In this document: positions 3,889-23,288 of the stretch, one piece after another
Position numbering within the stretch: position 1 is the first letter of the stretch
Layout of the letters: every line of letters starts with the position of its first letter
NCBI GenBank assembly: GCA_027001995.1
Contig: JALTLO010000084.1
Span: forward strand, 1-23,288
From: Planctomycetota bacterium
GTDB lineage: Bacteria; Planctomycetota; GCA-002687715; DRQF01
DNA: 23,288 nt
Direction of reading: 5' to 3'
Made by a program: the position numbers and the translations under genes
Notes under the pieces: model-generated
Seen by the model: only the letters and a program-made list of their open reading frames with translations
The model's database searches: none
Told to the model about the DNA's origin: nothing

Positions 3889-6309
3889 TCAGAGGTATCC
3901 CATGGCACGATAGCCCCGCAGTCTTCTTTGATACATCTTTGCCAAGGAAGGCACATTCTCATCGACATAGTCAACCACCCGCACATGGGTCTTCGAGTCA
4001 TGAACGCGATGCAGTCGGCCGACATATTGAACAATCGTTCCCTTCCAGGAAACAGGCATCGTCAAAAAGAGAGTATCTAAACGGGCGACGTCGAACCCTT
4101 CGCCGGCAAAAGGACCAGTGGCAAGAATCAAGAGTTCCTCTTCTATAGAGGCATTCGCAACCGTCGCCATCGCTAGCTCACGTTTCTTCACGGTCATGCC
4201 CCCGTGAAACACGACGACATTTTTGGTGAGAGGTCGCAGTAATTCTGATAGTACATTCAAATGATCTCGACGCTCCGTCAGAACGATGGGTGTCCGCCCC
4301 TCTTCCAACGCCAACCCAATGTCATCGACGATCATTGTGTTCCTTGTTTCGTCGTGAGCGAGAGAGCGTCCCAGATCTGATTTAGAGTAACTCGAATCGC
4401 CACCGATCATCCCAAAATCAGTCTGGCGAATAATAAGCTCTCGACTCAATCCAGCACCCCCTGCCGCCTTGGCTGGCATCTCAAACCTTATTGGCCCTAG
4501 CTGAAATCGGATAATCGGGTGTAGACCATCCCGGCGAATCGGAGTCGCTGTCAGGCCAGTCGTAAAACAAGAATTGGAATTCGCCAGGAGCCTTTCAAAG
4601 GAGATCGCCGGAACGTGGTGGCATTCGTCAACCACAACATGCCCATACTGGGCCGTGAAGGAGGCTGCGTCCTTACGCCGAACCACACTCTGGATCATCG
4701 CCACATCCAAATCGCCATTCGCGCTATTCTTCCCCCCACCAATCTGACCAATTTCCTGAGAATCCCAACCGAGAAATACCGAAAGCTGTGCCACCCATTG
4801 CTGCAAGATTTGGGAACGATGAACCAATACGAGAGTCGCCACGTTCCTCTCAGCAATGAGCGCCGCAGCGATCACAGTCTTACCGGCCCCAGGAGGCGCA
4901 ACAACCATACCCGTCTCTTCACCAACCAATCGCGCCACCGCTTCTTCTTGATAGTCTGTAAGACGACCTCGAAATTCCAAAGATAGAGACTTTCCCCGGT
5001 GGCGAACATCCTCTACGTCCATCGTCAATCCATGCTCCACAGCCAAGGACCGCAGAGAATCAAAACAGCCCCGTGGGATACGAAGTAAGTCCCCTGAGGA
5101 TTCACAACAGTCGATGATACGAGGAGTCCGAGCGGTTGACAGCCTGAGAGCCTGTCTCTTGTAGAATTCCGGGTTGTGAAAAACGGCAAGGCTTTTGAAC
5201 TCATGGATAAGCGCCGACGGCAAGCCTTTCGTCTGAATCTCGACCTGACTCCCGAGAACAACATTCAAATCGATATTGAGATCAAGACCTTTACCATGAT
5301 GAAAGCCTCTCTTTTTCTTCTCAATTAAAGGATGCTGGTCACTCTTCTCTTCTCGAGCCAACAACTTATCCAGCTCAGAAGCACTCATCCTTTCTACTGA
5401 TTCAAGATAGCGCCATTGATCGTCAAAGGGAGCGCCAGCATCGTCAATAAAAACAGAGTTGCCTTTTAGCCTAGGCTCACCTTGGAATGGGAGTGCAATC
5501 AAATTTCCCAAGCCACCCTTCGGCATGGTGTCTTGATTCGGAAACAGACGGTCATAGGAGTCAAAAGAAATCTGATGCCGCTTTGACATAGCCGCTTTCA
5601 GGAGCCCGGTGCCCAAGCGTCGCGCATCCCGAGCTTGAACGGCCTCGGCAAAGAACACCCAAACGTGGGCCCCATTCCCAGACCGAGAACGCTCAATAGC
5701 ACAAGGAACATTGTTCTCGCCACAGCTCTCGACAAATGCTCCTACGTCTTCTCGCCAGCCCCCCTTGTCAAAATCAACCGCCAAGAAGAAACAAGTGTCG
5801 TCTGGCAGCAGAGGATAGACCCCAATAACCCGCCGCCCCAAGAGATGCTCTTGTAAGATTCGATCCGTTACAGGCACGTACTTTTGATTCGAACAATCAC
5901 TGCACTTGACTCTTGGCTTATCACACAAGCCGCTCTTCCACTCATTGTCACAGACGGGGGAATAGCCAGACCGATTGGTCTTTCGATTCTTCCAACGCTG
6001 AGGAAAAACATCTTGGCGACCACGAAAGAGACTCTTAAACAGGGCGATCTTCTCTTGAGAACTGAGACTCCCATCCACCCCACAAGCTGCGGAGGACGAT
6101 CCATCGCCAACAAAACCCGCGCTGGTCAATCGTTTCATTTCACCTTGAATCAACAGAATTCGCTTACGCAGATCTTTGGTCTTGGCCTCTTGCTCGCGAA
6201 ATTTCCTCTCAAGCTCCTCAAGCTCAAGAGCCAACGCCCGAATCTCCGAGCCATCACTGTCATCAAGATCTTGAGACATCATTATCCCGCTCGCTCTATC
6301 CCGCCGCAA
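3889..6309 (-). CDS. AEP-type primase (TOTE-associated domain) fused to a DEAD/DEAH SF2 (ResIII-like) helicase
   Basis: FRGRQDVF, GVYPLLPDDTCFFLAVDFD, ERSRSGNGAHVW and YDRLFPNQD...GNLIALP (AEP motifs). APPGAGKT, DECHH, GLTATP and QYVGRLHR (SF2 motifs). N-terminal coiled coil. Confidence 0.88.
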   Translation of the reverse strand: MRRDRASGIMMSQDLDDSDGSEIRALALELEELERKFREQEAKTKDLRKRILLIQGEMKRLTSAGFVGDGSSSAACGVDGSLSSQEKIALFKSLFRGRQDVFPQRWKNRKTNRSGYSPVCDNEWKSGLCDKPRVKCSDCSNQKYVPVTDRILQEHLLGRRVIGVYPLLPDDTCFFLAVDFDKGGWREDVGAFVESCGENNVPCAIERSRSGNGAHVWVFFAEAVQARDARRLGTGLLKAAMSKRHQISFDSYDRLFPNQDTMPKGGLGNLIALPFQGEPRLKGNSVFIDDAGAPFDDQWRYLESVERMSASELDKLLAREEKSDQHPLIEKKKRGFHHGKGLDLNIDLNVVLGSQVEIQTKGLPSALIHEFKSLAVFHNPEFYKRQALRLSTARTPRIIDCCESSGDLLRIPRGCFDSLRSLAVEHGLTMDVEDVRHRGKSLSLEFRGRLTDYQEEAVARLVGEETGMVVAPPGAGKTVIAAALIAERNVATLVLVHRSQILQQWVAQLSVFLGWDSQEIGQIGGGKNSANGDLDVAMIQSVVRRKDAASFTAQYGHVVVDECHHVPAISFERLLANSNSCFTTGLTATPIRRDGLHPIIRFQLGPIRFEMPAKAAGGAGLSRELIIRQTDFGMIGGDSSYSKSDLGRSLAHDETRNTMIVDDIGLALEEGRTPIVLTERRDHLNVLSELLRPLTKNVVVFHGGMTVKKRELAMATVANASIEEELLILATGPFAGEGFDVARLDTLFLTMPVSWKGTIVQYVGRLHRVHDSKTHVRVVDYVDENVPSLAKMYQRRLRGYRAMGYL

Positions 6310-8689: not shown

Positions 8690-10086
8690 TCAATCATCAT
8701 CAAATCGCCCAACCATCTGTTCGAAGAATTCATCGACAAGATCTTCATCTCGAACAATCGTCCCCCACTCCTCGCGGAATGTACGATTCGGATCGCCCCG
8801 AAATGAGAGCCAATTGAAGCTTGAGATAACGAAGAACTCATCATCCTTAATCAGAATCTTCGCGTGAGTATCGCCCAATCGCCGCAAAACAAATGAGTTG
8901 TAGTCTTGTCCAATTGCTTCGAGTTGGAGTCGCGCACGTCGATCCTCAGGCTTCTCATGATCACGTCCGAGTCCATACCCAACAAAGATGCGGACGTTTC
9001 GCTCCGCCGCTTCGCGAACACTTCGCAAGAAGTCATTCCCAACGACAGCCTCTCGAATCCATGGAGAAATTATCATCACCCGTTTAGCCGCCGATTCAAG
9101 TGACTCACGTAAGAGGGGAGCATGTTCATACACCGCCAATGGCCTTACCATTGGTAGTTTCGTTTTCGAAGCGGCGTCCGGTTGAGATCCGCCGTCAACT
9201 TCGCACGTTGCACTTGCTGCTGTTTCTTGGATTGCAGCAGCATAGTCTCGTTCCGCCACGTCCACCTTTCGTGAGAGTTCAGTTCCAAGGACGTCGCTTC
9301 GGGAGGTCTGCTCTTGCCGTTCCTTCAACCGCGTGAATAAGCGACTTTGATCAACCCCATTTTTCCGCGCGAAAGCAGCCTCGTGTTCTTTAGATAATCG
9401 GCCATCAATTGCAAAAGCGACTTGCAGGTCCCTTTCAATGTGGGCGCGATAGACAACTGAGACGGAAGGAGTGAACATCCGTTCACGACGCTCAAGCGAC
9501 CGAATGGAGAGGATCTCAACCTTAGCATCTACTCTTGCATGGTAGCTTGCCAGTGCGTTTCGAACATCGTCCAGTTCTATCTCCTCCAACACCGGCGGTC
9601 TCGCAGGGAATGCGCGAATCTCACCCATCGCGGCATTCTTGAGGTCTCGGGGCCGCAGGAGTCGCTCTGCCGCAATGTGGATAGGCTTCCTCGTGAGTCC
9701 GTCATAATAGAAGACTACTGTACTTTCAGTTGGCCTCTCCAATTCGCCTTCACGCGCAACCTCTCGCCCCTTCTCTGTCAGCTTAACGAAGACCTCCTCC
9801 CCCCCCGCGTCCTTGAACTTCGTACACAATCGTCCCTAACCAAGTCGGCGAGAGTGGAGTCGACCATACTGTCTGATAAACCCAAGAGGCCTGCTATTAC
9901 CGACGTGTCGCGTGCACCAGAATGCATAGCCCGCAAAACGAATTCGGCGACAGGATCGATCTTTCGGCGCGTCACGCATAGAACGATCGCGGTAATTCGA
10001 TAGATCGGCAGCCCAACTTCGCCGTAGGCGACAACCTCATAACCGACACGATTATCTAATTGCCTGGCAACTTCTTCGGACTCCAT
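8690..10086 (-). CDS. mkoB: PLD-family nuclease with N-terminal wHTH-like region (Mokosh type I MkoB-like), split by a frameshift near G8 at 9799-9806
   Basis: C-terminal IISPWI...HAKILIKDDEFFVISSFNWLS (HKD motif). ORFs 9778..10086 and 8690..9829 overlap across the G8 run; one extra G gives a single 465-aa ORF. Starts 2 nt after the kinase-helicase stop. Confidence 0.75.
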
Positions 10087-10088
10087 AG

Positions 10089-13000
10089 TTAGGCCTCCAC
10101 AATCGAGCAGTCATCGGGATGAACATCGATGTATTCAAGGACATTGCGCCACGGATTTTCGCCCGATGCTAACCGTGCGAATTCGGCATCGCCGACAATC
10201 ACAAGTCCGAATCGAGCCCGAGAAAGTGCAACGTTCGCACGTCGTCGTTCGCGCAAGAATCCAAGGTCGCCAACCTTATTACTACGGGTAAGCGAGTAAA
10301 TCGCGATGTCCACTTCCCGTCCTTGAAAGGCATCGACCGTGTTGCATTCAATCTCCAAGTTCTTGGTGGACCTGTGGACACTGTCGATTACTCGGTCAAG
10401 AGCATCTCGCTGCGATGCGTAACCCGTCAGTACCCCGACGCTGAAGAAACGATTTCTTGCAGCCGCAATCAGATCCAGTGACTCGAGAAACTGTGCAATG
10501 AACTTCGTCTCCGCGATGTTTCGGTAGCTGGACGCATCGCTGTGTTCCCGCCGATTGGCACTTGACGAAGTATCGAGCCAAGTAACAGGGTTGCAAATCA
10601 GAGGATCCAGCAAGCCTCGCTCGCTCTTCCTCATGCTCTTAAGTTTTCCGTCATAAAAACACGTGCTAATTAGGTCACCAATCTCCCGTACCATTCGATG
10701 CTGCTCTGTCAGTTGGGATACACACTCTGATGGCAGTGCATCGCAGAGGTGATCAAGAAGCGAACTGCGAAGCTCTTGCCTCCCAATGCCCAGATTCTGC
10801 AAAGTTTCATCGTCATCGAGATCGCCGTCCGCGTGAGGAGGAAGTTGTTTGCGATCACCAATAACAATCCATGACTTTGCCTTCGACATGGGAATCAGCA
10901 ATTCCGTTGCGGTTGCCTTAGACGCTTCGTCGACGATGCAAAGATCGAACTCGGCTTCTTGCATCGCGTGGATGCCACCGATTCCAACACAAGTGCCTGC
11001 TACAATCTCTGCATCGGCGATCAATCCAGCCAAAAAGTCGCTCGCCCCGCCAAGCCGCAAATGCCAGTCTTCAACCAGCTGAAAATACCGATGCACGCGC
11101 TCAATATCGGGATTTCCTTTCAGAAGTTCGTTCTCCCATTCCAACAACTCGTCGTCGGACAAGGCGACCAATTCAGCACCGATGTCAAAGTCGCCGACCA
11201 GATTCTCTTCGACTTCATCCTGCTGCGCCCTTGCTCTCTTCAGCCGAATTGTCAGGTCCTCTCGAGTTTCGGTTTCGACTTCGATGCGTTCGTTGTTTTC
11301 ATCGAACCCATCATTCAAACCGGCAATGGCACGGCTCGATTCGATCGCCATCAACTCTGTCACAGAGGCCGATACTCGCTCAGACCTAGCTTGGAGCCTC
11401 AAGCGTCGAGCCCTGATGGATCGAAGCTTCGCAACCGCCATTCCCAAGTTGATGTTCTCAATATCAACTCCCTCTTGCTCAGCGAATTCCTGCACGTACG
11501 CGTGAGACGACTTTCGAATTTTTCGCTGCCAGACCCTGAGTCGGTTCTCAACCATCAAGTCTTCAACTCTTGAGGAGATCCGCGGATCTCCCTTTCGCCC
11601 AATCCTGAGCATTCTTCGAGCCGAATCAGCTTCTCTAATTCGCTCCAACGCATTGTCCAAGGCTACATGAGTCTGCGACACCAAGAGGATGCGAATTCTG
11701 GGATTCCTTCGAATCGCCTGTAGGACGACTTCTGTGATGAACCGCGTCTTTCCCGTTCCTGGCGGTCCTTCTACAAGAGTAAGGGCATCACTCCCCATTG
11801 AAGCACGCACTGCACTGCGTTTGCTTTCGTCGAGCCCTTTGTCGACGAAGCTCAATCCGTCTGCCACGCGGGGAGTTCTTGCCTTTTCTGGCGCAATCAG
11901 TATTTCACGTAGTTGAGGGGCCGCCGCACGTCGAAACCGGACGCGATCCAGAGCCCTCATCTGACGATCGATAGATCTCTGTTCTGCCCGAAAATCAACT
12001 TCCAGAATTCCTCGCGCCGGAACCTTCTCGACATCGCCAGATTCAATCCAGAACCCGATCTTTCCATCGCGGATTGACTCGACTTCTCCAGCGAGAAATG
12101 AATACTGTGAGAGTCGAATCAATCGTGATTGGCCGACAAGTTCTTCAGGTAACGACCGATTGCATTTCAATGTCGCACGGCTGCCTTGCCTTCCGATTAG
12201 CTCATATCTTATGGATTCGTCATTCGCTTTGCCCCGATTGCGCTTCGCGTGAAGTACGGCCAGCCACTTTTTGAAAATTAGATCGTCATCAATTTCCCGA
12301 GACGCGACGTCCTGGCAATACTCGTGCTCGGCAATTCGACCAATCAAATCGCGGATTACTTCGGCACCGTCTTTCTCGACCGCTCCTCGAACGCAGATTT
12401 GAAGTGCAACATCAATGTCAAAAGATCCTTCGCGCAGAAGATCCAGAACATGGGGAGGTCTCGGGGAAGCATAGTGAACAACCAAAAACGAACGTGTGTC
12501 TGCGTCTACGAACGCTCCGTACATGAACTCTGCACCGAAGATTGTGAGCGCCACTTGTTCTTTTTCGTGAGAATCTTTGGGTTGCTTGATCTTGACAGCC
12601 GCATCGTGTAGATCAACGGCTAATATGTCGTCAATCTGCCCTTCAGGGACACCGAGTTCAGAACTCAAGGTCTCGTAGGCCGCCCTGGTTAGACAGAGTG
12701 TGCAGGTCGGCTTGGTCTGCGAGCGGCGATGATGTTGTTCTCTCGGTAACTGGAGGGAGTCGATCTCTGTAAGGAGCTCTGCGACATTTGAGATTCGGTC
12801 ACGCGGGTCTCGCTCCATTGCGCGTTGCAAGACCAGCCCCACTTCTTCGTTGTCGAATTCGTTGAGTGATTCTTCAACTTCGTCATAAGTTCTGAGCCTC
12901 CGTTCAGCCATGCACTCAACCAGAAGCACTGCGAAGCCATAAACATCCCTTTGATCCACGTACCGAGAGTCTTCAGGTTCAGGAGGTGCGTAGGGCGGCG

Positions 13001-13514
13001 TGCGGAAATCTGCCATGGTGCGACCTATTCCAACCTGAGAGACAATTTTTGCGATCCCAAAATCAGTGATGCGCGGAGTGCCATCGGCGGTCATCATGAT
13101 GTTGTCGGGCTTGATGTCGCGATGCCGAATCCCCTGGGAAAAAGCATAAACGAGTCCAAGCAAGATCGGTCGTCCGATCTGTTGATAGAACGAGTCCCAT
13201 CCCGCGAGAGGGTTCTCTTTCAGATACGCCACCAGACTCGATTCCAACCATTCCAAAACAAGGAATCGCCGTTTCGATTCCGAATCGCGGCCACCATCGA
13301 GGAGCTTTACGACATTGGGATGCGCCAACTTCTGAAGGCTCTGCAATTCTCGGTCAAACGCAATTTCATCATGTGGAGTCGGGAAGGCAGGAAAGATCTT
13401 AACAGCAGCGCATCCTCCATTTACGCCGTCAATGGCCCTCCGTACCTCAGCCATTCCGCCTTGCCGAGGGGGTTCCTGATCTTGAATAACCCATCTATCA
13501 TTGAGTATGCGCAT
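10089..13514 (-). CDS. mkoA: Ser/Thr kinase - SF1 (Upf1/DNA2-like) helicase fusion (Mokosh type I MkoA-like)
   Basis: Kinase motifs GGMAEV, AVKIF, HRDIKPDN, DFG, PYAPPE. Helicase motifs GPPGTGKT, SQTHVALDN, DEASKA, GDRKQLPP, QHRM, TVDAFQGRE, NVALSRAR. GGAGAG RBS before ATG 13514 (1141 aa). Confidence 0.85.
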   Translation of the reverse strand: MRILNDRWVIQDQEPPRQGGMAEVRRAIDGVNGGCAAVKIFPAFPTPHDEIAFDRELQSLQKLAHPNVVKLLDGGRDSESKRRFLVLEWLESSLVAYLKENPLAGWDSFYQQIGRPILLGLVYAFSQGIRHRDIKPDNIMMTADGTPRITDFGIAKIVSQVGIGRTMADFRTPPYAPPEPEDSRYVDQRDVYGFAVLLVECMAERRLRTYDEVEESLNEFDNEEVGLVLQRAMERDPRDRISNVAELLTEIDSLQLPREQHHRRSQTKPTCTLCLTRAAYETLSSELGVPEGQIDDILAVDLHDAAVKIKQPKDSHEKEQVALTIFGAEFMYGAFVDADTRSFLVVHYASPRPPHVLDLLREGSFDIDVALQICVRGAVEKDGAEVIRDLIGRIAEHEYCQDVASREIDDDLIFKKWLAVLHAKRNRGKANDESIRYELIGRQGSRATLKCNRSLPEELVGQSRLIRLSQYSFLAGEVESIRDGKIGFWIESGDVEKVPARGILEVDFRAEQRSIDRQMRALDRVRFRRAAAPQLREILIAPEKARTPRVADGLSFVDKGLDESKRSAVRASMGSDALTLVEGPPGTGKTRFITEVVLQAIRRNPRIRILLVSQTHVALDNALERIREADSARRMLRIGRKGDPRISSRVEDLMVENRLRVWQRKIRKSSHAYVQEFAEQEGVDIENINLGMAVAKLRSIRARRLRLQARSERVSASVTELMAIESSRAIAGLNDGFDENNERIEVETETREDLTIRLKRARAQQDEVEENLVGDFDIGAELVALSDDELLEWENELLKGNPDIERVHRYFQLVEDWHLRLGGASDFLAGLIADAEIVAGTCVGIGGIHAMQEAEFDLCIVDEASKATATELLIPMSKAKSWIVIGDRKQLPPHADGDLDDDETLQNLGIGRQELRSSLLDHLCDALPSECVSQLTEQHRMVREIGDLISTCFYDGKLKSMRKSERGLLDPLICNPVTWLDTSSSANRREHSDASSYRNIAETKFIAQFLESLDLIAAARNRFFSVGVLTGYASQRDALDRVIDSVHRSTKNLEIECNTVDAFQGREVDIAIYSLTRSNKVGDLGFLRERRRANVALSRARFGLVIVGDAEFARLASGENPWRNVLEYIDVHPDDCSIVEA

Positions 13515-13531
13515 GTCTCTCTCCGCCCGTA

Positions 13532-13568
13532 CTGACACCAAGTCTATTGGTGTCAGCGAGAATGTCAA
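13532..13568 (-). promoter_or_regulatory. Sigma70-type promoter of mkoAB overlapped by a perfect 10-bp inverted-repeat operator
   Basis: - strand TTGACA (13568-13563), N16, TAGACT (13546-13541). CTGACACCAA-N5-TTGGTGTCAG at 13532-13556 is centred on the -10. Confidence 0.7.
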
Positions 13569-13691
13569 GACGGCCGAGTCTCGCTCTTGTAGCGAGCCGC
13601 GAAGAGTCGAATGCAACCACCGCCTCGAGTCCATTCGTCAATCGCTTCACGGCCACAACCAAGCATGTCAAGATTCCAACCGGAGAACGTG

Positions 13692-14111
13692 ATGCGCGAC
13701 AAGGGCACCCCATCCAGCCTGATGCGATTCCTCAAGAAGCGTGAGGAAACCGACGCAATCTCACTGAATGAACTCCAGAAGGACTTGACCGAACTGGTGA
13801 GAAAGGTCCGCGCCATCGTCGGCAATGAGCCGGAGGTCAATGGAGCCCTCCGGTTGCTCATGCTCCAACCGCTGTGGCAGGTCGCGGAAGAATTGGAGTC
13901 CATCAGGCGCATGGGGGTACGTGAGGCCGGGAGGCAGAGGATCCCCAACAACAAGCTCGGAACGACCGGCGTTGGTTGGTCACGCCAAACTTCCGCCTCA
14001 AGAGCTGCAGAACAACCAAGCGCATCCGGGCCTGGTATCCAACAGGCTCGGGAAAAGAGCCTGAATCGCTGGTTCGTCTTGAGCCTCCATGGAACGGTTG
14101 TGACTCCATGA
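13692..14111 (+). CDS. Hypothetical protein, divergent from mkoA
   Basis: GGAG RBS then ATG 13692. Helical N-terminal half. Stop overlaps the next ATG (ATGA at 14108-14111). Confidence 0.5.
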   Translation: MRDKGTPSSLMRFLKKREETDAISLNELQKDLTELVRKVRAIVGNEPEVNGALRLLMLQPLWQVAEELESIRRMGVREAGRQRIPNNKLGTTGVGWSRQTSASRAAEQPSASGPGIQQAREKSLNRWFVLSLHGTVVTP

Positions 14112-14584
14112 TTTACAACGAGCACCTCGCCACCTTCCGGGCATGGCCGGCAAAGATCTACGAACCAAAGCGCCGAGATGTCTACGAAATGGCGGAGGAT
14201 TTCCGAGCGGACCTCGACGCGATGAAACTACCCGACCACGAACACAGCACAACACTACTTAGGATCTCCTTGGGCACAGGCCACCGCCGCGAATCAAATG
14301 GATGGATCGAAATCGGAGGTCCGATACGAAACCGTTGGGACTCCGACGGTCAATTTGGACTGGGCATCCCTATCCCTCAGAACTATGCCGTTGTCGCAAT
14401 CCAACACCTGGGATCGACGTTCGGGGTCAGCGCTGAGCGGCTGGGAGACGAGCTTAGGGTCACTTGGAACGGCGCATTCATAATCCAAGAAAGAGTCCGT
14501 CTAATCGTTTGGGTCACCTCCAAGAAACAGCCTAACATTGTCATCTTAGTGTGCCCCGGATCTTGGCATACCTTCTGGGTCTGA
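14108..14584 (+). CDS. Hypothetical protein, 'TWNGAF' family paralog A
   Basis: ATGA-coupled start and clear similarity to the frame at ~21190-21630. Confidence 0.65.
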   Translation: MIYNEHLATFRAWPAKIYEPKRRDVYEMAEDFRADLDAMKLPDHEHSTTLLRISLGTGHRRESNGWIEIGGPIRNRWDSDGQFGLGIPIPQNYAVVAIQHLGSTFGVSAERLGDELRVTWNGAFIIQERVRLIVWVTSKKQPNIVILVCPGSWHTFWV

Positions 14585-14644
14585 GCTTGGATTCCCAAGA
14601 ATCCTCGACTCCTCCTTACACTGAATTTGAAGTGACCAAGAAAT

Positions 14645-14680
14645 GCCCGATCCCTTGGCGGCAACCATCAGGGACCGGGC
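14645..14680 (+). promoter_or_regulatory. Long GC-rich hairpin directly upstream of the Rep-like gene RBS
   Basis: GCCCG-A-TCCCT-TGG-[CGGCAA]-CCA-TC-AGGGA-C-CGGGC, followed by GAAAGGT and ATG 14695. Confidence 0.55.
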
Positions 14681-14694
14681 GGAAAGGTAATCAT

Positions 14695-16533
14695 ATGCAG
14701 GATACGTCCCATTCGGCGTCTGAACATTCCGCCGCTCAGTATTATCTCGACCAGTTATCGTGGGTCAAAATCCCCCCGCACCTCGTTTATTCCCAAATTC
14801 TGAGCGCGAAAGTCCGGGCGCTTCGAATCAAGCTCGAGTGCTTTGCAACAATGATCAGCAAAGGTTCTGAGTTCGCACCTCTGTTGAGTCCACAGTTCCT
14901 GTCCAAGGTTTTCGGTTTCGGAGAAAAAGCCGCCCGATCACAACTCAAGAAACTTCGAGAGAATGGTCTTCTGAAAGGAGAGACTCCTGTGTGGCCTCGT
15001 CTTCCAGGACTGCGCGCTCTCAAGCCTCTACATAAATACCTTCCCCCAAAAGTCAAAACTAACTGGTTTCATCGCGCTCCTCGACTTCTCGTAGGACACT
15101 TGGGCACGGCCGCTTTGCTGATCTACTTTCACCTCAAGCACAAAGAACTCAACTACTGGGTAGAGGTGCGCAAAGAAAGGAAGAGTAGCTGGTCCGAGTT
15201 GTCAACAGATCTACGACTCAGCAAGCGCGATGTTGGCGTGGGCCTGGAAGAGCTTAGACGTCTTTGTGTCGTGGACTGGACCAAAGGGAACTTCAAGTTG
15301 CTCGGTCTTCATGCTGAGAACGTCAACTTGTTCCGCTCTCACTTCTTCGTCACCGACGCCGACGTTTGTTGGCTAAGGCACCTCGGCTATCGGTGGCACT
15401 CAATGGACGTGGCCGCCCAAGAATGGTGCCAGGAGTTTGCACCTAACGATGAGATTGCTTGGGCATCCGATTCTGTCGGGACGTCGTTTTGGTACCGCTC
15501 TGCGATGGGACGAGTGCCTGATTTGGTACCGCCGAGCCCACCCCCATGGGACGCCATTGGCGTCCATCCCGTATGGGGTTACGGCCCTTCCGGCCTCCAC
15601 CCCTCTGGGGGAAACGAAGAGAAGAAAACCAAGATGAGCCCGCCCGCCATCTTCGACGGCCGGCAGGTTGCGCTGGAGACTTTGGAATTCAACAAGATCT
15701 GGATCGAGCTTGTACCTCCATTCATGTCGGTTCCATTCCTCGAACATGCCCTGGAGTCTCTTGATGCGGCCCGATGGATCGCCCTGTGGTTCGATGGTCT
15801 CAATGCCGTAGGCAATCTTGATTCCGAGGTCTTGGACAGTGCAGAGATTCGGCCACGAATCGTTACCGAATGGATCTCGGGTACTGCTCTTGCTCAGCTG
15901 CTGCTACAGATCACCAACGAGATCAGCCTATCCGACGCCGCAGATGTCAAAACGGCTGTGGCGGCTGTGGCTCACATCATGTCGAGGAAACCAGACGAGT
16001 ATGTCGCCCCGATGACGGTTGCCTATGAGGCGGCCAAGGACGGTCTGCCGCTCTTCAAGTACTTTGTAGCGGCGGCCCGTGGCGCGACCGGACGATTCAA
16101 AGAAGGAACCGGTCACCTTGAGGAGGCGATAGCTGAAGTCTATTCGGGAGACTCGTCGTGCCTTCGCGACTGGCGTTTCAGCGTTGCAGACGTGATCGGC
16201 CCAGCGATGAGCGCTTTTCCGCTCAACATCTTGCAGGGAGCCGCAATCGAGAAGTCTCTCGAGATTCTCAGTCATGATTTTCACCCTGTGACGTTCCTCT
16301 GGGAGAGACTACGGCGGGTTCGTCGAAAAAGAAGCCTCAAGGATCATGCAGCTTACGTTGACGAAATCTGGGAAGATCGTGCGACGAGAGTTCCGCAGGA
16401 CGTTGCTCGATACTGCAAGAAATGGTGCCAGGATCTTGCCGACTGGCGTGGTGATACTGCAATGATGATTATCCCGCTGTTCATCTATCCACACCTGGAA
16501 ACGCTGAGGCAATGGGCAAAGACGGCCTTATGA
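14695..16533 (+). CDS. Putative replication initiator-like protein with two N-terminal winged-HTH domains
   Basis: WVKIPPHLV...LSAKVRAL...FLSKVFGFGEKAARSQLKKLRENGLL and WFHRAPRLL...ALLIYFHL...SWSELSTDLRLSKRDVGVGLEELRRL are two HTH_36-like units. Pro-rich linker and helical C-terminal half. Confidence 0.55.
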   Translation: MQDTSHSASEHSAAQYYLDQLSWVKIPPHLVYSQILSAKVRALRIKLECFATMISKGSEFAPLLSPQFLSKVFGFGEKAARSQLKKLRENGLLKGETPVWPRLPGLRALKPLHKYLPPKVKTNWFHRAPRLLVGHLGTAALLIYFHLKHKELNYWVEVRKERKSSWSELSTDLRLSKRDVGVGLEELRRLCVVDWTKGNFKLLGLHAENVNLFRSHFFVTDADVCWLRHLGYRWHSMDVAAQEWCQEFAPNDEIAWASDSVGTSFWYRSAMGRVPDLVPPSPPPWDAIGVHPVWGYGPSGLHPSGGNEEKKTKMSPPAIFDGRQVALETLEFNKIWIELVPPFMSVPFLEHALESLDAARWIALWFDGLNAVGNLDSEVLDSAEIRPRIVTEWISGTALAQLLLQITNEISLSDAADVKTAVAAVAHIMSRKPDEYVAPMTVAYEAAKDGLPLFKYFVAAARGATGRFKEGTGHLEEAIAEVYSGDSSCLRDWRFSVADVIGPAMSAFPLNILQGAAIEKSLEILSHDFHPVTFLWERLRRVRRKRSLKDHAAYVDEIWEDRATRVPQDVARYCKKWCQDLADWRGDTAMMIIPLFIYPHLETLRQWAKTAL

Positions 16534-16665
16534 GCAACTGAATGACAGCAGTCGAACCAGAATTGGCAAGTGCCATTCGAGGGGGTGACATGGCGATTCG
16601 ATGCAACCAGGCCATACTGACAACAGTAGTGGTCGGTAGTGTCGAACGCACCTCAAGGAACCTGT

Positions 16666-17739
16666 ATGGCGAAACAACTTAAGAGTCAGTCGCAAGTCGC
16701 GGAAACATGTGCCGGAAAAGCGAAGAACGGGCGTTGCAGGGCTCGACCAATGGGAGGACGGAGATTCAGCTTCTTCCACGATCCGGAACTGGGAGATGAA
16801 TGCACAAGAGCACGTAGGAGAGGAGCGGCTGTGACAAACGGTCTCGCAATCACACCGCTTGCATTCAAGATCCCCTCGAACTTGCGATCAATCGCCGATC
16901 TCATGGAGTTGGTTGAGACCATTCTGCGAGCCACGATCGGCAACGATGTTGACCACAAGGTCGCCAATGCTCTTGGGAATCTGGTCAAGTTGCAAGTGAG
17001 TCTCCTGGATGATTTCCGATTGGAGGAACGCCTCGTAGCACTTGAAACCGCTTTCGTGGAAGGTGGACACCAAATGCGTAGGAAGAACCTCGCTGACCGA
17101 CTCGCGGCCCTGGAATCGCGTAACATTCCACCAACGGCGCTCTCATTTGAGGAGGCAGGCAGACATACCATTGGGCCCCGCGCGCAGGGCAACAGCGAGC
17201 GAGAGGTCTGCGATGCTCTGGACGAACAAGATCCAAGTCTCATGCGAAGCGGCTTCTTCGTTCCATCCGAATACGCCAGCTACGACCAAACCACTATCCG
17301 ATTCCCGGGCGAATGGGCCGCAAGACATGTAAACCCCTACGTAGCCATTGTCGGTCGCCTCAACGACGGAGGGTTCTCAGTATTGATGCCAGGTGGTGAG
17401 CGCTTTCCCCTTCGATCGCCTGAAGGTTTCGACTCGCGAGTGCTAGATCACCTGGCGGTGTTCTGGCTCGGCCTCCTGGCTCAAATCACGGAGACCTGGT
17501 CGACGTTCTGGTCACGGAGCGCTGGAGTCAGGGGCAGGATAGGACTGGCCTCATTCTGTATCGAGAGTGCCAAGAAACGAGCCAAGACGATGGAAGCTGA
17601 GGAGGATGCAGAAGAGCTTGCAGACTATCGGGCGGCCCTCGGTGTGCGAATCGAGTGGATCCTTGGGCACCACAAAGAACCTGACTCCATTCCGTGGGTG
17701 GTCGAGAGCACCGAAGCACAGATGGAGACGTCATCATGA
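16666..17739 (+). CDS. Satellite-type protein with N-terminal C-C-(S)-H zinc-knuckle-like motif (HGGxSTG/DUF5763-like), fused in frame to a second module
   Basis: CAGKAKNGRCRARPMGGRRFSFFHDP...RARRRG, then LEERLVALE. Internal RBS and ATG at 17074 (MRRKNLADRLAALE). Confidence 0.55.
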   Translation: MAKQLKSQSQVAETCAGKAKNGRCRARPMGGRRFSFFHDPELGDECTRARRRGAAVTNGLAITPLAFKIPSNLRSIADLMELVETILRATIGNDVDHKVANALGNLVKLQVSLLDDFRLEERLVALETAFVEGGHQMRRKNLADRLAALESRNIPPTALSFEEAGRHTIGPRAQGNSEREVCDALDEQDPSLMRSGFFVPSEYASYDQTTIRFPGEWAARHVNPYVAIVGRLNDGGFSVLMPGGERFPLRSPEGFDSRVLDHLAVFWLGLLAQITETWSTFWSRSAGVRGRIGLASFCIESAKKRAKTMEAEEDAEELADYRAALGVRIEWILGHHKEPDSIPWVVESTEAQMETSS

Positions 17740-18185
17740 TCGAATCCAATCCCCAAGACGTCCTTCTTGCTCAGTGCCAAGACCTGGCACGAAACTGGGG
17801 TACCGGTCGCTATTGCCGCTCCGGTTGGAAGCGCCGCCTGTTCATCGTCTTGTGTACGCTTTTCATGGGGCGACTTTGGTTCGGTGAGGGCACCGACAGC
17901 TTCAGGAGTGTAGGAACCCCCTATTTCGACCGGCCCGAAGATCTTGACCCTGAGTTCCTCCTCGTGCTCGCCGTTCTTACGAACACTTCCGAGGTCGTGA
18001 GCCAGTGCCTCAACTGGCCGCAGACGCTTGAACTGACGGAACGCTTGACTGGTGAGCTTGTCAGAACAATGTCGGAGGAAGAGACCCAAGGCATGCAGGT
18101 GTTGATCCGGTCAATTGCAGTGCGAGAGATGCGGTACGTTCGCAGATTCCCAGAAATCGAACCTGAGGAGAAGCCCCATGCGTGA
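17736..18185 (+). CDS. Hypothetical protein
   Basis: ATGA overlap with the previous stop; overlaps the next gene's start. Confidence 0.6.
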   Translation: MIESNPQDVLLAQCQDLARNWGTGRYCRSGWKRRLFIVLCTLFMGRLWFGEGTDSFRSVGTPYFDRPEDLDPEFLLVLAVLTNTSEVVSQCLNWPQTLELTERLTGELVRTMSEEETQGMQVLIRSIAVREMRYVRRFPEIEPEEKPHA

Positions 18186-18671
18186 TCTCGACTGTTCGAA
18201 ACTGACGGGGACGAGACGTGAGCGCCGCGACCCTGATTCGGAAGCTCGACTGGCGGTCATGGTTCGCAACCTGAGATGCCCGGCCCGAGATGAAGCCGGG
18301 TGGATCAAGGAAGCCCAAGATCTCTATGATGGATTGAGCCGAGAGTGCGAGAGTGACAATGACGAGCCTTGCAGTTTGACTCCTGAGTTCTCGGAGTTCG
18401 TCCTGGAGCTGAGAGCCGAGCGCTTTAAGCCGGCTTCTAATAACCCCCGCCCCTACACAGCGAATATCGAGGATGCTTCCCTAACTCGGATCGACCTTGT
18501 TGCCTATGGGCGCTCAAGAAGAACATGTGGGTGTGGTACGCCTGGTCGAATGAGCGGGGATGGGACGAAGGGGCACGCGCTTGGAAGTGGTATGTCGAGA
18601 AGGCCAAAGCACTTTCGTACGATCTAAGAACCGCCCGGCCGGTTGCTGGCAAAAACGAGGCCGAGGCATGA
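18178..18671 (+). CDS. Hypothetical protein, probably frameshifted at ~18510 (or followed by a separate 48-aa ORF 18525..18671)
   Basis: GGAG RBS and ATG 18178. The alternative frame ALKKNMWVWYAWSNERGWDEGARAWKWYVEKAKALSYDLRTARPVAGKNEAEA* ends in an ATGA overlap at 18668-18671. Confidence 0.45.
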
Positions 18672-18787
18672 AAGTTGTAAGGCAGCCGCGACGCTTCGTA
18701 CCTTGGGGACAAGGCTGTTGTTACCGCGATGAGCCAACCGATCCCAAGAACAAGAATGGTCCAGATTTGGCGACCTTGGCGCAGTGA
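18668..18787 (+). CDS. Small hypothetical protein (39 aa)
   Basis: GAGG RBS and ATGA overlap; MKVVRQPRRFVPWGQGCCYRDEPTDPKNKNGPDLATLAQ. Confidence 0.3.
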   Translation: MKVVRQPRRFVPWGQGCCYRDEPTDPKNKNGPDLATLAQ

Positions 18788-18815
18788 GACGTCTGAAAGA
18801 GGAGTGATACCGAAT

Positions 18816-19271
18816 ATGAAGAGGCTACCCAGAATTCATCGGCCGCTTACGGAGGTTGAGCATGCAGTGCTTTGGGACCGCATTGTCAGCTCCATCCTCT
18901 ACTCCAAAGAGATCGCCGAGGCCTTTCAGCGATTCAATCGACGGTTGCGGTCCAGGAACGTTACTCTTGACAGCTGCGCAGGTGGAGTCGTCTCTTGCGC
19001 GAAGGCAGATGAAGGGCCATTGATCCGGCAACTGATCATCATGGACATGATGCGACACAAGCCAACACGAAGTTACTACTTTGAGATTCAGGACGACAGC
19101 AACGGCACCCTCAGAGCTTGGAATGAACTGTATGGAGAAGCGAGATGGTGGGAGAGTGAGGTGATTGTGCGTTTCCGGAAGGACACTCTGGTGCGGGTTC
19201 GTAATCAATTAGCAAAGGCCATCGGGAGGATCTCAAAGGTACGAAGGAAGCGCTCGGCCTTTGAATATTGA
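18816..19271 (+). CDS. Hypothetical basic protein
   Basis: AGAGGAG RBS before ATG 18816; last gene of the co-oriented cluster. Confidence 0.6.
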   Translation: MKRLPRIHRPLTEVEHAVLWDRIVSSILYSKEIAEAFQRFNRRLRSRNVTLDSCAGGVVSCAKADEGPLIRQLIIMDMMRHKPTRSYYFEIQDDSNGTLRAWNELYGEARWWESEVIVRFRKDTLVRVRNQLAKAIGRISKVRRKRSAFEY

Positions 19272-20826: not shown

Positions 20827-21189
20827 TCATTCACTCCATTGTCAAGTCGCTTTGGACTTCTCTCCCTGATCGTCTGATTCAATCAGCGGGAAGTCGATGG
20901 TGCTACTCTTGTCGAGCAACCCGAGAGGATATCATCCTTTGGGGACAGAATTCGCCTAATCCCCCGACAGCCAATTCTGGATTGACGAGGATGTCGGTTC
21001 GACAACTACTGCCCTACGGTTACGAACCAAAACGAAGCCTCCCACTAAACCTCAATCAAGCGACCTCCCTTCCCTCAGTCGATCGAACGCCTTCAATCGC
21101 TCTCTTGTTGGGAAAGTAATGCCGACTTTCTCGCGATTTCGCCTGTCGCGACTGTTCTTCGACGTCCCACATGTATTCATTGCCGAGAT

Positions 21190-21630
21190 TTCGTCATCTG
21201 GAATCGAACCAGTCGTGCGACGCAATTCCGCGCGTGGTCACGTCGGTTGCACGAACCATTGGTGGCTGCCCGGGTACCAGCGCCAGGTCGCGTTGTCGAA
21301 GAGCTCAAGCACCTCTTGGTGCCCCCTCGCGCAACCTTGACTGCGCCGCTGCGCCTTTGCCTTGCGTACGGGCAAAACAGGACAATTCATCCCTGGATTT
21401 ATGTCGGACGTGGAAATTCCTTCAAATGGATGAGCAATTCAATGCGAGACGAACTCATCCAAAAGGACAAGGAACGAGAACTTGCACGAACAATCCCGCA
21501 ATCGGTGCTCGCAGGGACAATCCCACTTCTTGGACCGAAATTTGGCCTCCATGTCGGATCCTCCTCCGAATCGAAACTGAAACTAACCTGGAATGGTGCA
21601 TTCCTCATCCGCGAGGTCTACGACCTTTGA
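21190..21630 (+). CDS. Hypothetical protein, 'TWNGAF' family paralog B (start uncertain, possibly degenerate)
   Basis: Frame open from 21049. Similarity to paralog A begins upstream of the TTG at 21247 (IWN...FRAW..LHEP). Confidence 0.55.
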   Translation, partial: FVIWNRTSRATQFRAWSRRLHEPLVAARVPAPGRVVEELKHLLVPPRATLTAPLRLCLAYGQNRTIHPWIYVGRGNSFKWMSNSMRDELIQKDKERELARTIPQSVLAGTIPLLGPKFGLHVGSSSESKLKLTWNGAFLIREVYDL

Positions 21631-21722
21631 CACTCAATGACCGCGTCACACTGTTCAGGGGCGTTCACGAAAATTTACCTTTGTTCACTGTTATTGATCG
21701 CGAATGTCCCCATCCTAGGGGC

Positions 21723-21935
21723 ATGAACAAGAAAACTGATCAACACCTCCTAACCGTCGAGCAAGTCGCGGAGATCTGTGCGATTTCGCCACAGACCGTC
21801 CGTCGTTGGCTCCGCCTCGGCCACCTCCGCGCCGTCAAGTTGAGTCCTGGCCGACGCAATGGGTGCGTTCGCGTACGCGAAGCCGATCTCGCCACATTCA
21901 TCGAACGTGGAATTCGGGAGAACTGCGATGACTAA
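21723..21935 (+). CDS. Excisionase-like HTH_17 (MerR-type wHTH) DNA-binding protein
   Basis: LLTVEQVAEICAISPQTVRRWLRLGHLRAVKL...VRVREADLATFI, 70 aa. Confidence 0.9.
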   Translation: MNKKTDQHLLTVEQVAEICAISPQTVRRWLRLGHLRAVKLSPGRRNGCVRVREADLATFIERGIRENCDD

Positions 21936-22059
21936 GTGTGTCGAGACCCTCGACACATCACTGCTGGGATTGGGGTCCGGGCGTCGACTTACCATCGTCG
22001 CCACGTCTAAGCGGCCTCATCGAGGCAAAACGAAACTCTTGCACGAGGTCACACAATGA
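21928..22059 (+). CDS. Small hypothetical protein (43 aa)
   Basis: GGAG RBS; overlaps the xis stop; its TGA overlaps the ATG at 22056. Confidence 0.45.
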   Translation: MTKCVETLDTSLLGLGSGRRLTIVATSKRPHRGKTKLLHEVTQ

Positions 22060-23288
22060 GCTGGGAATCCGAGATTGAAACAACTGAGCTCCCATTCGGT
22101 CCTCCAAATCCGAATTCGGCGTCACGTGGGCCATGGCTGATCGATCTGGCCGATTACGACGATTGGGCCGAACTTGGTCATAGGGTCCATTGGGACTCAA
22201 ACACCACTGCGGCGATTCGGATGTTAGACGAAAAACTCATCGACGCCGGAGGCATTGCCTTCTCCGAGTACCTTCATCTCATCGACAGGTACACGGACCA
22301 TGACTTCCAGGGCACGGGCCGCGACCGTGTGGTACTTCAGTGCGAACTCACGCCTGCTGTCGCCGAAGCGCTCCGAAAGTTCCTTCAGCCCGAGTCGCTC
22401 GATGCCCTTGTTCCCTGGAGCCTCCCGAAAGGTTTCAGACCTCAGCTCTCGGCTGTTCGCCACGCGGACCCAAGATGCACGGCCGGCCCCGACGGAGATT
22501 CGGCCCTTGCCATTATCTCATTCAACGCCAGCCTCGTTGCGAGCGGCCACGCTCGGCCGACCAGCGTCATCCGATCCGCCCTGCGACGCCTTCGCATCGG
22601 TGGAACACTCGCTGTCTTTGAGCCAAGAGGCGTCTCGTGCACGGCTCTGGAGCGGTACGGCCACATCATTGAGTCACGGAAGGTCGGCGATGGGACTCTC
22701 ACCATCGTGCGCAAGTTCGGCGCGGAAGGGACAGTCGGTCTCGTAAACCCGGACAGCCTGGAGACTGCCATCCGGCACTGGCTTCGACGGAAGCCGAGAC
22801 AGCGGGTCGGCCAACTCCTACGTGAACTCCACCAGCTCGGTGGGAGCATTCCCGAACCAACGGCGGATGCTCTCCGCGCCTCAGCGAAAATCCTGGAATA
22901 TCGCCGGAGCGAGAGCGAACGACTCCCGCTCAGTGAGCGATTGGCAGGGCTCGTCTTCGAGGCCGTCGCCGATCGGGGTCGCCAGTTCTGTATTGCTGAG
23001 TATCGCCCTGCTGCACCTCGGCTTTTCTTCCAGTCGAAGGACCTGCCCGATCACTGGATCGACGAGAATGCCTGGCGGAACAGGCCAGCCGAAGTACAAA
23101 CTCGGTATCGCCGGATCGCGGTCTACGCGCCGCTGGACCGTCTCTTCCTCGGCATCCTGACTCAAAGGCTGACCCGGCGCGTTGATCCCCGTCTGCATCC
23201 GTCGCTCGTCGGCGGCCGACCGGAAAGGAGCATCGGTGACGTCGCCCGTCTCATCATGAAGGCTCTCCGAGGCGACGCGGTCCATCAG
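22056..23288 (+). CDS. Reverse transcriptase-like protein with long N-terminal extension (runs off the window, at least 411 aa)
   Basis: Stop-free frame from ATG 22056 (GAGG RBS). RT0-like LVNPDSLETAIRHWLRRKP, RT1-like EYRPAAPRLFFQSK, RT2-like YRRIAVYAPLDRLFLGILTQRL, RT2a-like DPRLHPSLVGGRPERSIGDVARLIMKALRG. Confidence 0.75.
   Translation, partial: MSWESEIETTELPFGPPNPNSASRGPWLIDLADYDDWAELGHRVHWDSNTTAAIRMLDEKLIDAGGIAFSEYLHLIDRYTDHDFQGTGRDRVVLQCELTPAVAEALRKFLQPESLDALVPWSLPKGFRPQLSAVRHADPRCTAGPDGDSALAIISFNASLVASGHARPTSVIRSALRRLRIGGTLAVFEPRGVSCTALERYGHIIESRKVGDGTLTIVRKFGAEGTVGLVNPDSLETAIRHWLRRKPRQRVGQLLRELHQLGGSIPEPTADALRASAKILEYRRSESERLPLSERLAGLVFEAVADRGRQFCIAEYRPAAPRLFFQSKDLPDHWIDENAWRNRPAEVQTRYRRIAVYAPLDRLFLGILTQRLTRRVDPRLHPSLVGGRPERSIGDVARLIMKALRGDAVHQ

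Follow-up and report, generated by a model that had tools for sequence, protein, structure and literature searches.

Which gene runs off the right-hand end of this stretch of planctomycete DNA, and what could it be doing there? The window, by which we mean the whole stretch of 23,288 nt that was analysed, comprises positions 1-23288 of contig C84 (JALTLO010000084.1; 59,535 bp) of the source genome G000 (5.2 Mb, 204 contigs, 92% complete). A first-pass annotation, made from the letters of the window, had pointed to a frame without a stop codon at 22056-23288 and read it as the start of a divergent reverse transcriptase (RT) gene. We found that this frame is the 5′ 40% of a single RT gene of about 1,043 codons, which is split by a scaffold gap. 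Its product consists of an N-terminal domain with a methyltransferase (MTase) fold (approximately residues 25-225), a divergent RT core and about 440 C-terminal residues. The gene lies in a horizontally acquired, repeat-flanked cassette with conserved downstream partners, inside a defence island. The positions of all features are given in Table 1.

The RT gene continues across an assembly gap

The frame on the forward strand was read directly in the sequence. It starts with the ATG at 22056, contains 411 codons without a stop and runs off the end of the window. It is cut off there because the window stops at a scaffold gap, a run of 10 Ns at 23289-23298 that directly follows the last nucleotide of the window and is the sole N-run of the contig. 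Past the Ns, on a codon boundary, 628 further open codons were found (C84:23299-25185, stop codon at 25183-25185). The pre-gap and post-gap parts of the protein are referred to as P0001 and P0002, respectively. An intact relative of 1,040 aa, P0011, was found by a cluster look-up from a match to the C-terminal fragment. Its residues 1-409 are 70.6% identical to the product of 22056-23288 (over 411 residues), and its residues 414-1040 are 64.3% identical to the product of C84:23299-25182. Across the position of the gap P0011 reads ...AAHQ-GTDI-TKFHDS..., and on this alignment the gap most likely hides about four codons (G-T-D-I), including that of the RT3 aspartate. Counting these codons, the RT gene extends over about 1,043 codons, C84:22056-25185. 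Both contig ends fall on codon boundaries, which is consistent with an in-frame gap of 12 nt. No second copy of the RT was found in the G000 genome. The gene is real, very rare and multi-domain, and it is probably intact.

In contigs built independently from the one run that contains this DNA, probably that of the source sample, the sequence stops exactly at 23288 and resumes at 23299; nothing bridges the two positions, and no loose ends were seen. Thus two independent assemblies break at the same positions inside RT motif 3 despite a missing piece of probably about 12 nt. The shared break could stem from microdiversity among strains or from problems of coverage over the active-site codons.

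The core is that of a divergent group-II-intron-like RT

Four motif strings (RT0, RT1, RT2 and RT2a) had been named at first pass, and each of them is present at its position in Table 1. RT2, RT2a, RT3 and RT4 were verified at the residue level, since residues 349-471 of P0011 align with residues 74-206 of the GsI-IIC group II intron RT chain (E = 7.6e-5), a segment that covers all four motifs. RT1 fits the family alignment, whereas the string called RT0 had no significant alignment. The unusual insertion between RT1 and RT2, which had also been pointed out, measures about 20 residues and is common to the relatives. The motifs expected downstream of the window are there as well: RT3, RT4, RT5, RT6 and RT7 were located past the gap, at C84:23302-23679. 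The RT3 aspartate itself falls in the 10-N gap and corresponds to the D of G-T-D-I in P0011, while the FIDD of RT5 is present in the assembled sequence.

The Pfam profile RVT_1 matched P0002 with an E value of 4.2e-5 and 23.8 bits, below the Pfam cut-off of 29.6 bits, and in a six-frame search it matched C84:23395-23676 with 26.3 bits (same cut-off). No Pfam match was obtained for P0011 even at E ≤ 1, and none for P0001 alone in Pfam, PADLOC or NCBIfam. Three relatives, P0006 (644 aa), P0007 (1,242 aa) and P0008 (1,250 aa), exceed the RVT_1 cut-off with 51.3, 44.1 and 80.8 bits, respectively. A profile made from these three proteins matched 18 solved polymerase chains (RTs, telomerases and one named only 'Polymerase'), in the RT core only. 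The GsI-IIC RT was the best match (E = 1.8e-15) and G2L4 was found at 1.3e-10; next came other group II and G2L RTs, retron-type RTs, Cas6-RT-Cas1, and DRT2/DRT3. Judged from its sequence, the protein is a genuine, highly divergent group-II-intron-like RT, with a complete core of RT1-RT7 and a thumb, and a predicted FIDD active site.

The N-terminal domain has a methyltransferase fold

The structure of residues 1-235 was predicted with AlphaFold2 from a 6-row alignment (predicted local distance difference test, pLDDT, 68; predicted template modelling score, pTM, 0.72). A Foldseek search of the model against the PDB gave 165 matches at E ≤ 1e-3 with TM scores of 0.32-0.47, and among the matches listed nearly all are class I methyltransferases. 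VIA-align gave Z scores of up to 12.7, with a root-mean-square deviation of 3.1 over 154 residues against Trm11, and the top 50 rows are essentially all of MTase fold. At the sequence level the domain had no match in Pfam, PADLOC or NCBIfam, and no methylase profile matched it. Its motif I is degenerate, with ELTPA (22344-22358) in place of GxGxG, and the family alignment shows x-(T/C)-P-A at this site. The same alignment has no conserved acidic residue after strand 2. For these two reasons, canonical binding of S-adenosylmethionine (SAM) by the domain is considered unlikely. A region of the form 'NASL...LRIGGTLAVF' (22524-22619) is conserved.

After the thumb come a low-complexity linker and a segment of about 370 residues with family-wide conservation. 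The AlphaFold model of this C-terminal region is poor (pLDDT 48), and no usable match was found for it in the protein atlas. A periplasmic-binding-type α/β fold was considered and rejected, as the best VIA-align Z score (7.9) is within the noise band of the tool. A conserved stretch, 'WR..L..I..G...VVV.DL ... RPT..W', resembles by eye a degenerate RecA-like core, for which it is a candidate only.

The RT fits no described class by profile

The first-pass annotation had suggested a possibly undescribed RT class, and known bacterial classes were compared with the protein. A group II intron was rejected, in agreement with the earlier view: Rfam 15 gave 0 matches at gathering thresholds in the window and downstream sequence (41 kb, both strands), TIGR04416 (group_II_RT_mat) scored 25.6 bits against an equivalog cut-off of 300 bits, and no maturase (X) or HNH Pfam domain was found in P0002, P0011 or P0006-P0008. 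The best core similarity is nevertheless to the group II and G2L RTs (GsI-IIC, PDB 6ar1), with which RT2, RT2a (GxRPxxS), RT3 and RT4 align; in contrast to them, the present protein has extra N- and C-terminal domains and the insertion of about 20 aa between RT1 and RT2. Retron RT models scored poorly and matched P0002 at E values of 1e-3 to 0.012 and P0007 at up to 2.5e-10, the latter in the core only. No retron non-coding RNA (ncRNA) was matched by Rfam, which covers few retron RNAs, and no inverted repeats of the msr/msd type were seen. A diversity-generating retroelement (DGR) was rejected because self-blastn of C84:12000-36000 gave only one repeat pair, an intergenic boundary repeat of 53 bp described below; no Avd-like Pfam match was found among the neighbours of the RT. 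A CRISPR-associated RT was rejected as well. No Cas1, Cas2 or Cas6 was detected in 74 Pfam queries (73 neighbouring open reading frames (ORFs) or pieces plus P0002), and C84:21799-26682 contains no tandem repeats and no CRISPR array. The CRISPR RT model scored 27.3 bits in the core only, and the sole Cas-named match is a Cas4-like PD-(D/E)XK domain 6.6 kb downstream of the RT.

The PADLOC models for P0002 were led by UG17 (9.3e-9), UG4 (2.7e-7) and CRISPR RT (8.6e-7). For P0011 the best were the generic RT model (40.3 bits) and UG17 (37.7 bits), both in the RT core only. Class-specific scores reach 66 bits on the distant relatives and stay at or below 40 bits on P0011. Since these scores are all low and alike, the lineage is unaffiliated by profile, and by this measure it appears to belong to no described RT class. 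The top class-specific models are those of the Class 2 UG RTs (UG17, UG4, UG26, UG27) and DRT9, with 32.6-60.9 bits for UG17 and up to 65.9 bits for UG26. These matches are low and confined to the RT core. In addition, Class 2 RTs are far shorter (model lengths 307-488) and have no extra known domains, as far as the available part of their description goes, and neither SLATT nor other partners typical of Class 2 were found here.

The closest analogy in architecture is with UG25 and UG35. According to the part of PMC9226505 (Mestre et al. 2022) that was available, both carry N-terminal methylase domains and belong to the Class 1 UG/Abi RTs, which include methylase fusions and multi-gene systems; their partners are a UvrD-like helicase (UG35) and DUF1848 (UG25), and their role in defence is called 'inconclusive'. 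The combination of an MTase with an RT is thus not unprecedented. To that extent the architecture is less novel than had been assumed at first pass. The profile scores set the lineage apart. Like the RT described here, UG25 and UG35 are, in the same part of that source, large single chains that begin with a methylase-type domain, continue with an RT and end in a long C-terminal extension, all in a multi-gene setting. In the PADLOC models of UG35 and UG25 the RT core is about as far from the N-terminus as it is in P0008 and P0006. The N-terminal methylase feature is seen here at the level of the predicted fold only, with no methylase signature detectable by Pfam and no GxGxG. Neither the UG25 nor the UG35 profile is among the matches of P0001, P0002 or P0011 at E ≤ 10, and on the relatives both match the core only (UG35 34.4 bits on P0008; UG25 23.4 bits on P0006). 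The partners differ too. Here they are HTH_17, orf43 and Y1/Y2, and compared with those named in the available text, no UvrD-like helicase or DUF1848 was detected in X, HTH_17, Y1, Y2 or ORF163 (the domain scan left out orf43 and Z_B). The helicase nearest to the cassette, a kinase-SF1 fusion, is encoded on the other strand about 7.4 kb outside it. The alpha-Rep C-terminus of UG25/UG35 is not evident in the present protein, whose C-terminal model is poor. The architecture as a whole was not found described in the literature searched.

The family is extremely rare

HMMER, run exhaustively over 1.84 billion representatives, returned six proteins at E ≤ 1e-3: two close fragments, P0006, P0007, P0008 and one generic Cas6-RT-Cas1 protein. 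The family therefore comprises five related clusters in 1.84 billion representatives. Residues 91-389 of the window part align with residues 84-399 of P0007 (E = 4e-16) and also with P0008 (E = 1e-9), and P0006 is without the N-terminal domain. P0007 and P0008 have about 200 extra C-terminal residues that are not present in the G000 RT, have no Pfam match and were not found as a separate copy in the G000 genome. They contain G-D-L...R-[IV]-E-V-[QK], which by eye resembles a PD-(D/E)XK nuclease motif and is a candidate for one.

Other searches gave no further members. A word-indexed search of 5.8e9 clusters with P0002 returned the cluster of the query only, and P0001 found no true relative in 400 further genomes of the phylum. 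The only non-self match in the latter, in genome G184 (E = 4.7e-5), was a TPR-CHAT protein and was rejected as a low-complexity artefact. A scan of GTDB representatives with the family alignment gave 39 pattern matches, a scan of JGI metagenomes 77, and a scan of viral contigs with P0011 seven, none of which was confirmed. In a second scan of JGI metagenomes, 80 of 199 loci were kept. All of them match in the RT core only (best 74.7 bits) and were for this reason rejected as generic RTs; 0/80 match the N- or C-terminal regions and 0/80 have the genes of the cassette. The profile search also brought up P0017, a metagenomic protein of 816 aa in which an RT is fused to the same AEP-TOTE domain as that of the 806-aa protein at 3889-6309.

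The RT is part of a repeat-flanked cassette with paralogues

The cassette that contains the RT gene, here called module B, is about 6 kb long (~21.05-27.02 kb) and consists of X, HTH_17, orf43, RT, Y1, Y2, Z and ORF163, all on the forward strand. It is bracketed by direct repeats of 53 bp, the only pair found by self-blastn of the region (79% identity, E = 7.7e-5). The repeats share an identical core of 11 bp, AAAACGAAGCC, and have no other copy in the genome. The left repeat is not unusually structured (z = +0.78). The right repeat lies in a cluster of terminator hairpins and shares sequence with the 5′ half of one of them. Similarity to contig C152 of the congener G385 (94%) and to a paralogous region on contig C134 starts at C84:27075-27081, inside the right repeat, and by these alignments the right edge of module B is a synteny breakpoint. 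The gene on the left flank had no homologue in 20 relatives, and because the left flank is conserved in 0/20 of them no empty site was recovered. No tRNA was found in 41 kb. Promoter and terminator scans gave counts within shuffle expectation, and the only useful item was a minus-strand terminator at the right boundary.

Two paralogous cassettes were identified. Module A lies upstream in the same contig, and the other is on contig C188 (4.6-8.7 kb, reverse strand), next to the dnaA region. In a tblastn comparison of modules A and B, Y was 36-43% identical (E = 9e-64), and X and Z matched at E values of 4e-12 and 1e-6, respectively. The match of X_A covers 21139-21615 with 28% identity over 159 aa, and no similarity was seen at the DNA level; X_B had no Pfam or PHROG match. 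Module A and the C188 cassette carry a protein of 660-678 aa (p660) in the slot of HTH_17, orf43 and RT. The C188 homologue of p660 gave weak signals of tandem winged helices (MarR_2 at 2e-5, HTH_24, HTH_36), all below Pfam cut-offs. p660 has no similarity to the RT family, its word-indexed search returned its own cluster only, and a PDB sequence search with p660 and with a 406-aa ORF of C188 gave no match. The C188 cassette is located in an insertion of about 9.85 kb that is missing from the congeners G287, in which the flanks are about 50 bp apart, and G385. No direct repeats were found at the ends of this insertion (the best candidate is 11 bp long, E = 0.05).

Y is one fused ORF in module A and two overlapping frames in module B, C188 and G385. 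Because the split junction is the same in all three, Y1 and Y2 are probably two genes. In the atlas Y resembles small, often viral hypothetical proteins (score 0.93), which we treat as a lead only. The Y2 profile was found in 3/401 genomes sampled from the phylum, all in the family of the window. In G385 the RT C-terminus has a homologue at the very start of a contig (197 aa aligned, 42.6% identity, E = 2e-44); Y1-Y2 and an ORF170-like gene come immediately after it, so the order RT, Y1, Y2 is kept in two species. In G226, Y1-Y2 is found beside, and divergent from, a gene for a 682-aa primase-helicase of the SF3/D5 type (PDB 7ola, 'DNA primase', E = 2e-9).

The HTH_17-orf43-RT chain

The overlapping chain of a xis-like gene, a 43-aa ORF and the RT gene, as described at first pass, could be read in the sequence. 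The HTH_17 gene and orf43 overlap by 8 nt, and the ATG of the RT overlaps the TGA of orf43 by 4 nt (ATGA). The HTH_17 protein, a DNA-binding protein of the excisionase/AlpA/MerR type, matched phrog_66, 'excisionase and transcriptional regulator' (E = 1.8e-9). A second HTH_17 gene (102 aa) stands directly ahead of the BREX genes of the same contig, so this domain need not mean excision here, and in its setting on contig C84 the protein looks like a neighbour of the regulator type. No homologue of orf43 was found in the G000 genome. The RNA of 21930-22060 folds with -44.7 kcal/mol (z = -2.19; 5/200 shuffles as good) and contains a perfect 10-bp hairpin; instead of coding for a protein, this segment could act as an attenuator or belong to an RNA partner. 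The xis leader (21600-21725) shows no unusual structure (z = -0.57).

The contig is a defence island

By its gene content, the 59.5-kb contig is a dense defence island. In addition to the systems in Table 1, Pfam identified an AAA ATPase with DUF1232, DUF3150, RadC and PD-(D/E)XK proteins. The PLD nuclease and the kinase-helicase fusion probably form another conflict system. No tyrosine integrase was found on C84, the 11 PF00589 matches of the genome being all elsewhere, and no other recombinase was found among the Pfam-scanned ORFs of the contig.

The block of DUF1232, AAA ATPase and DUF3150 genes next to module B (C84:27081-30466) is duplicated on contig C134 of the same genome (31326-34581) with 73-83% DNA identity. 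It is 94% identical in G385 and about 70% identical at the DNA level in G226 (79% for the ATPase protein). Different variable genes abut the same terminator at this block, which looks like the anchor of a recombination hotspot. Further to the left, an ORF of 162 aa (2298-2786, forward strand) has a match to the carbon-nitrogen hydrolase family that is confined to the C-terminal half of the profile (positions 128-248 of 256); it may be a truncated gene or have a mis-called start.

Table 1. Features of the RT gene, its cassette and the surrounding contig. Positions are those of contig C84, of which the window is 1-23288.
Feature	Position	Strand	Remarks
N-terminal domain, residues 1-235	22056-22760	+	predicted model; class I SAM-methyltransferase fold
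RT gene, linker helices and RT fingers	22740-23288	+	family alignments; P0011 against GsI-IIC RT
Putative RT0, LVNPDSLETAIRHW	22740-22781	+	label not backed by any significant alignment
RT1, YRPAAPRLFFQSK	23001-23039	+	fits family alignment
RT2, YRRIAVYAPLDRL	23106-23144	+	residue-level alignment via P0011 to GsI-IIC RT
RT2a, VGGRPERS	23208-23231	+	residue-level alignment via P0011 to GsI-IIC RT
RT3, KYHDSLRHD	C84:23302	+	post-gap; alignment
RT4, IPNGCPIAA	C84:23419	+	post-gap; alignment
RT5, FIDDMVVVG	C84:23521	+	post-gap; alignment; FIDD at 23521-23532
RT6, HPKKS	C84:23620	+	post-gap; alignment
RT7, FLGLL	C84:23665	+	post-gap; alignment
RT thumb	near C84:23776	+	post-gap part
HTH_17 protein ('xis'), 70 aa	ATG 21723 to TAA 21933-35	+	Pfam HTH_17, E = 7.1e-13, 49.1 bits
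orf43, 43 codons	21928-22059	+	8-nt overlap with HTH gene; putative coding
X_B ORF (stop-to-stop)	21049-21630	+	homologue of X_A; first canonical start 21247, homology from 21139
Left direct repeat, 53 bp	20997-21049		right copy at C84:27049-27100
Module A, paralogous cassette	13976-19271	+	X_A 13976-14584; p660 14551-16533; Y_A 16639-17739; Z_A 17694-18185; ORF170; ORF180
TOTE-type AEP primase fused to ResIII/DEAD helicase, 806 aa	3889-6309	-	Pfam; primase E = 9e-103
PLD-family nuclease (379 aa), then kinase-SF1 (AAA_11/AAA_12) helicase fusion (1,181 aa)	8690-13634	-	Pfam
Two ThsB-type TIR genes, HTH_17, complete type-1 BREX (BrxA, BrxB, BrxC, PglX, PglZ, BrxL), GmrSD, AAA_15/21 ATPase	C84:33153-48651		beyond window

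Possible function of the RT

We give about an even chance to the reading that the RT is the catalytic subunit of an RT-based anti-phage conflict module, carried as cargo by a small mobile cassette. It is based on the island context, on the HTH_17 gene ahead of BREX and on the known homes of UG/Abi-type RTs. Mobile-element hotspots carry anti-phage systems, according to the available part of PMC9122126. In such a module, the operon, whose genes are translationally coupled, would be under the transcriptional control of the HTH_17 protein. Once triggered, the RT would polymerise DNA from an RNA template or without a template, as in the Abi/Class 1 DRTs. The MTase-fold domain would serve as a module that binds nucleic acids or nucleotides (a sensor or a holder of the primer) and would probably not be an active methylase. 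Delivery or regulation of the output would fall to the C-terminal region and Y1/Y2.

Several points weigh against a defence role. It is read from the neighbourhood only. No effector domain could be recognised in the window protein or in Y1/Y2/Z, which have no Pfam, PHROG or PADLOC matches, and the model of the C-terminal region is poor. No ncRNA template was found by Rfam at gathering scores, and the spacer between xis and RT is mildly structured (z = -2.2). As for the enzyme, the RT3 aspartate is absent from the assembled sequence at a point where two independent assemblies break, RT4 is IPNG with N for the usual Q, and both the window protein and P0011 score below the Pfam gathering cut-off. 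Finally, in two paralogous cassettes the slot of the RT holds a winged-helix protein, and in G226 a primase-helicase stands beside the backbone genes. This pattern fits a slot for replication or initiation at least as well as a slot for cargo.

The proposal made at first pass was that the RT serves the replication or lifecycle of an integrative element as one of its core genes. In its present form, the RT would be the replication or lifecycle enzyme of the cassette of about 6 kb, an alternative to p660 and to the D5-type primase-helicase, and would copy the cassette transcript or prime DNA, with the HTH_17 protein as an AlpA/Xis-like switch. We regard this as unlikely. The exchange of the slot with winged-helix and primase-helicase proteins speaks for it, and the lack of a recombinase, of att logic and of a precedent speaks against it. 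HTH_17, orf43 and RT together take the position that p660 has in module A and C188, and a p660 homologue shows tandem winged-helix signals, all of them below cut-offs. The Y1-Y2 pair of G226 adjoins the 682-aa SF3/D5-type primase-helicase; however, that gene is on the opposite strand and outside the operon slot. Module B lies between direct repeats of 53 bp with the right copy at a synteny breakpoint, but identity between the copies is no higher than 79%, and the right one consists in part of the terminator of the neighbouring operon. The C188 cassette sits in an insertion of about 9.85 kb absent from two congeners, yet the insertion lacks terminal direct repeats. Excisionase-type PHROGs match the HTH protein, and the resemblance of Y to small, often viral hypothetical proteins is a lead in the same direction. 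On the other side, no integrase or recombinase was found on C84 or C188:1-20000, and neither a tRNA nor packaging or origin features were found. The setting found is a defence island. The repeats, the breakpoint, the C188 insertion and the pairing with p660 and the primase-helicase speak for parts of the proposal. RTs in the variable slots of mobile elements are usually defence cargo, as stated in the available part of PMC9122126. The literature searched held no RT-replicated bacterial island or satellite.

To our knowledge, no bacterial island or satellite is replicated by an RT. In satellites such as phage-inducible chromosomal islands (PICI) and P4-like elements, the polymerase-type gene usually encodes a primase or Rep. 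The satellite modules led by AlpA/Xis are similar to module B in that a small gene of the HTH_17/excisionase family precedes a large polymerase-type gene in a short cassette with direct repeats, and a related cassette here adjoins a D5-type primase-helicase. They differ in that module B has no integrase, no tRNA/attB logic and no capsid or packaging genes, and in that its polymerase is an RT and not a primase or Rep. A bolder version, in which the RT is the replicase or initiator of an integrase-less 'retro-cassette', is switched on by the HTH_17 protein to copy or prime the element, and is functionally interchangeable with p660 and the primase-helicase, seems to us distinctly unlikely. If true, the retro-cassette would be a prokaryotic mode of RT-dependent propagation outside group II introns, retrons and DGRs.

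It is improbable that the protein is a domesticated group-II-intron-like RT that acts in DNA repair or damage tolerance and has nothing to do with defence or mobility. The closest solved cores, those of group II and G2L RTs (GsI-IIC, 1.8e-15; G2L4, 1.3e-10), would agree with such a role, and G2L4 reportedly acts in DNA repair or damage tolerance. There is also the precedent of a multi-domain PrimPol-RT-CTD protein, which acts in the response to oxidative DNA damage and in defence according to the available part of PMC12439943. The family is extremely patchy in its distribution (five clusters in 1.84e9), is absent from the congener G287 and is carried in an inserted cassette, which is not like a housekeeping function. 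Its gene, moreover, lies within a defence island.

A decaying or non-functional remnant, either an RT pseudoenzyme or a gene broken at the gap, is very improbable: RVT_1 scores of 23.8-26.3 bits against a cut-off of 29.6, the change of Q to N in RT4, the unassembled RT3 aspartate at which both assemblies stop at the same two positions and the degenerate SAM motifs would fit it, but about 1,040 codons are open on both sides of the gap with 64-71% identity to the intact P0011, which carries T-D-I, the FIDD, HPKKS and FLGL motifs are intact, a 43%-identical homologue has the same downstream genes in G385, and the contig ends are on codon boundaries.

Time and again, bacterial RTs other than those of introns, retrons and DGRs have proved to be mechanistically surprising immune enzymes and useful tools. 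The present lineage stands out by its rarity, by an MTase fold without canonical SAM motifs and by its cassette, which is flanked by repeats and whose backbone genes are elsewhere found together with proteins of the replication type. The locus is a compact, testable unit of about 6 kb. If it is a defence module, it would add a new architecture beside UG25 and UG35; if the RT is the replicase of the cassette, it would represent a new kind of RT-dependent mobile element.

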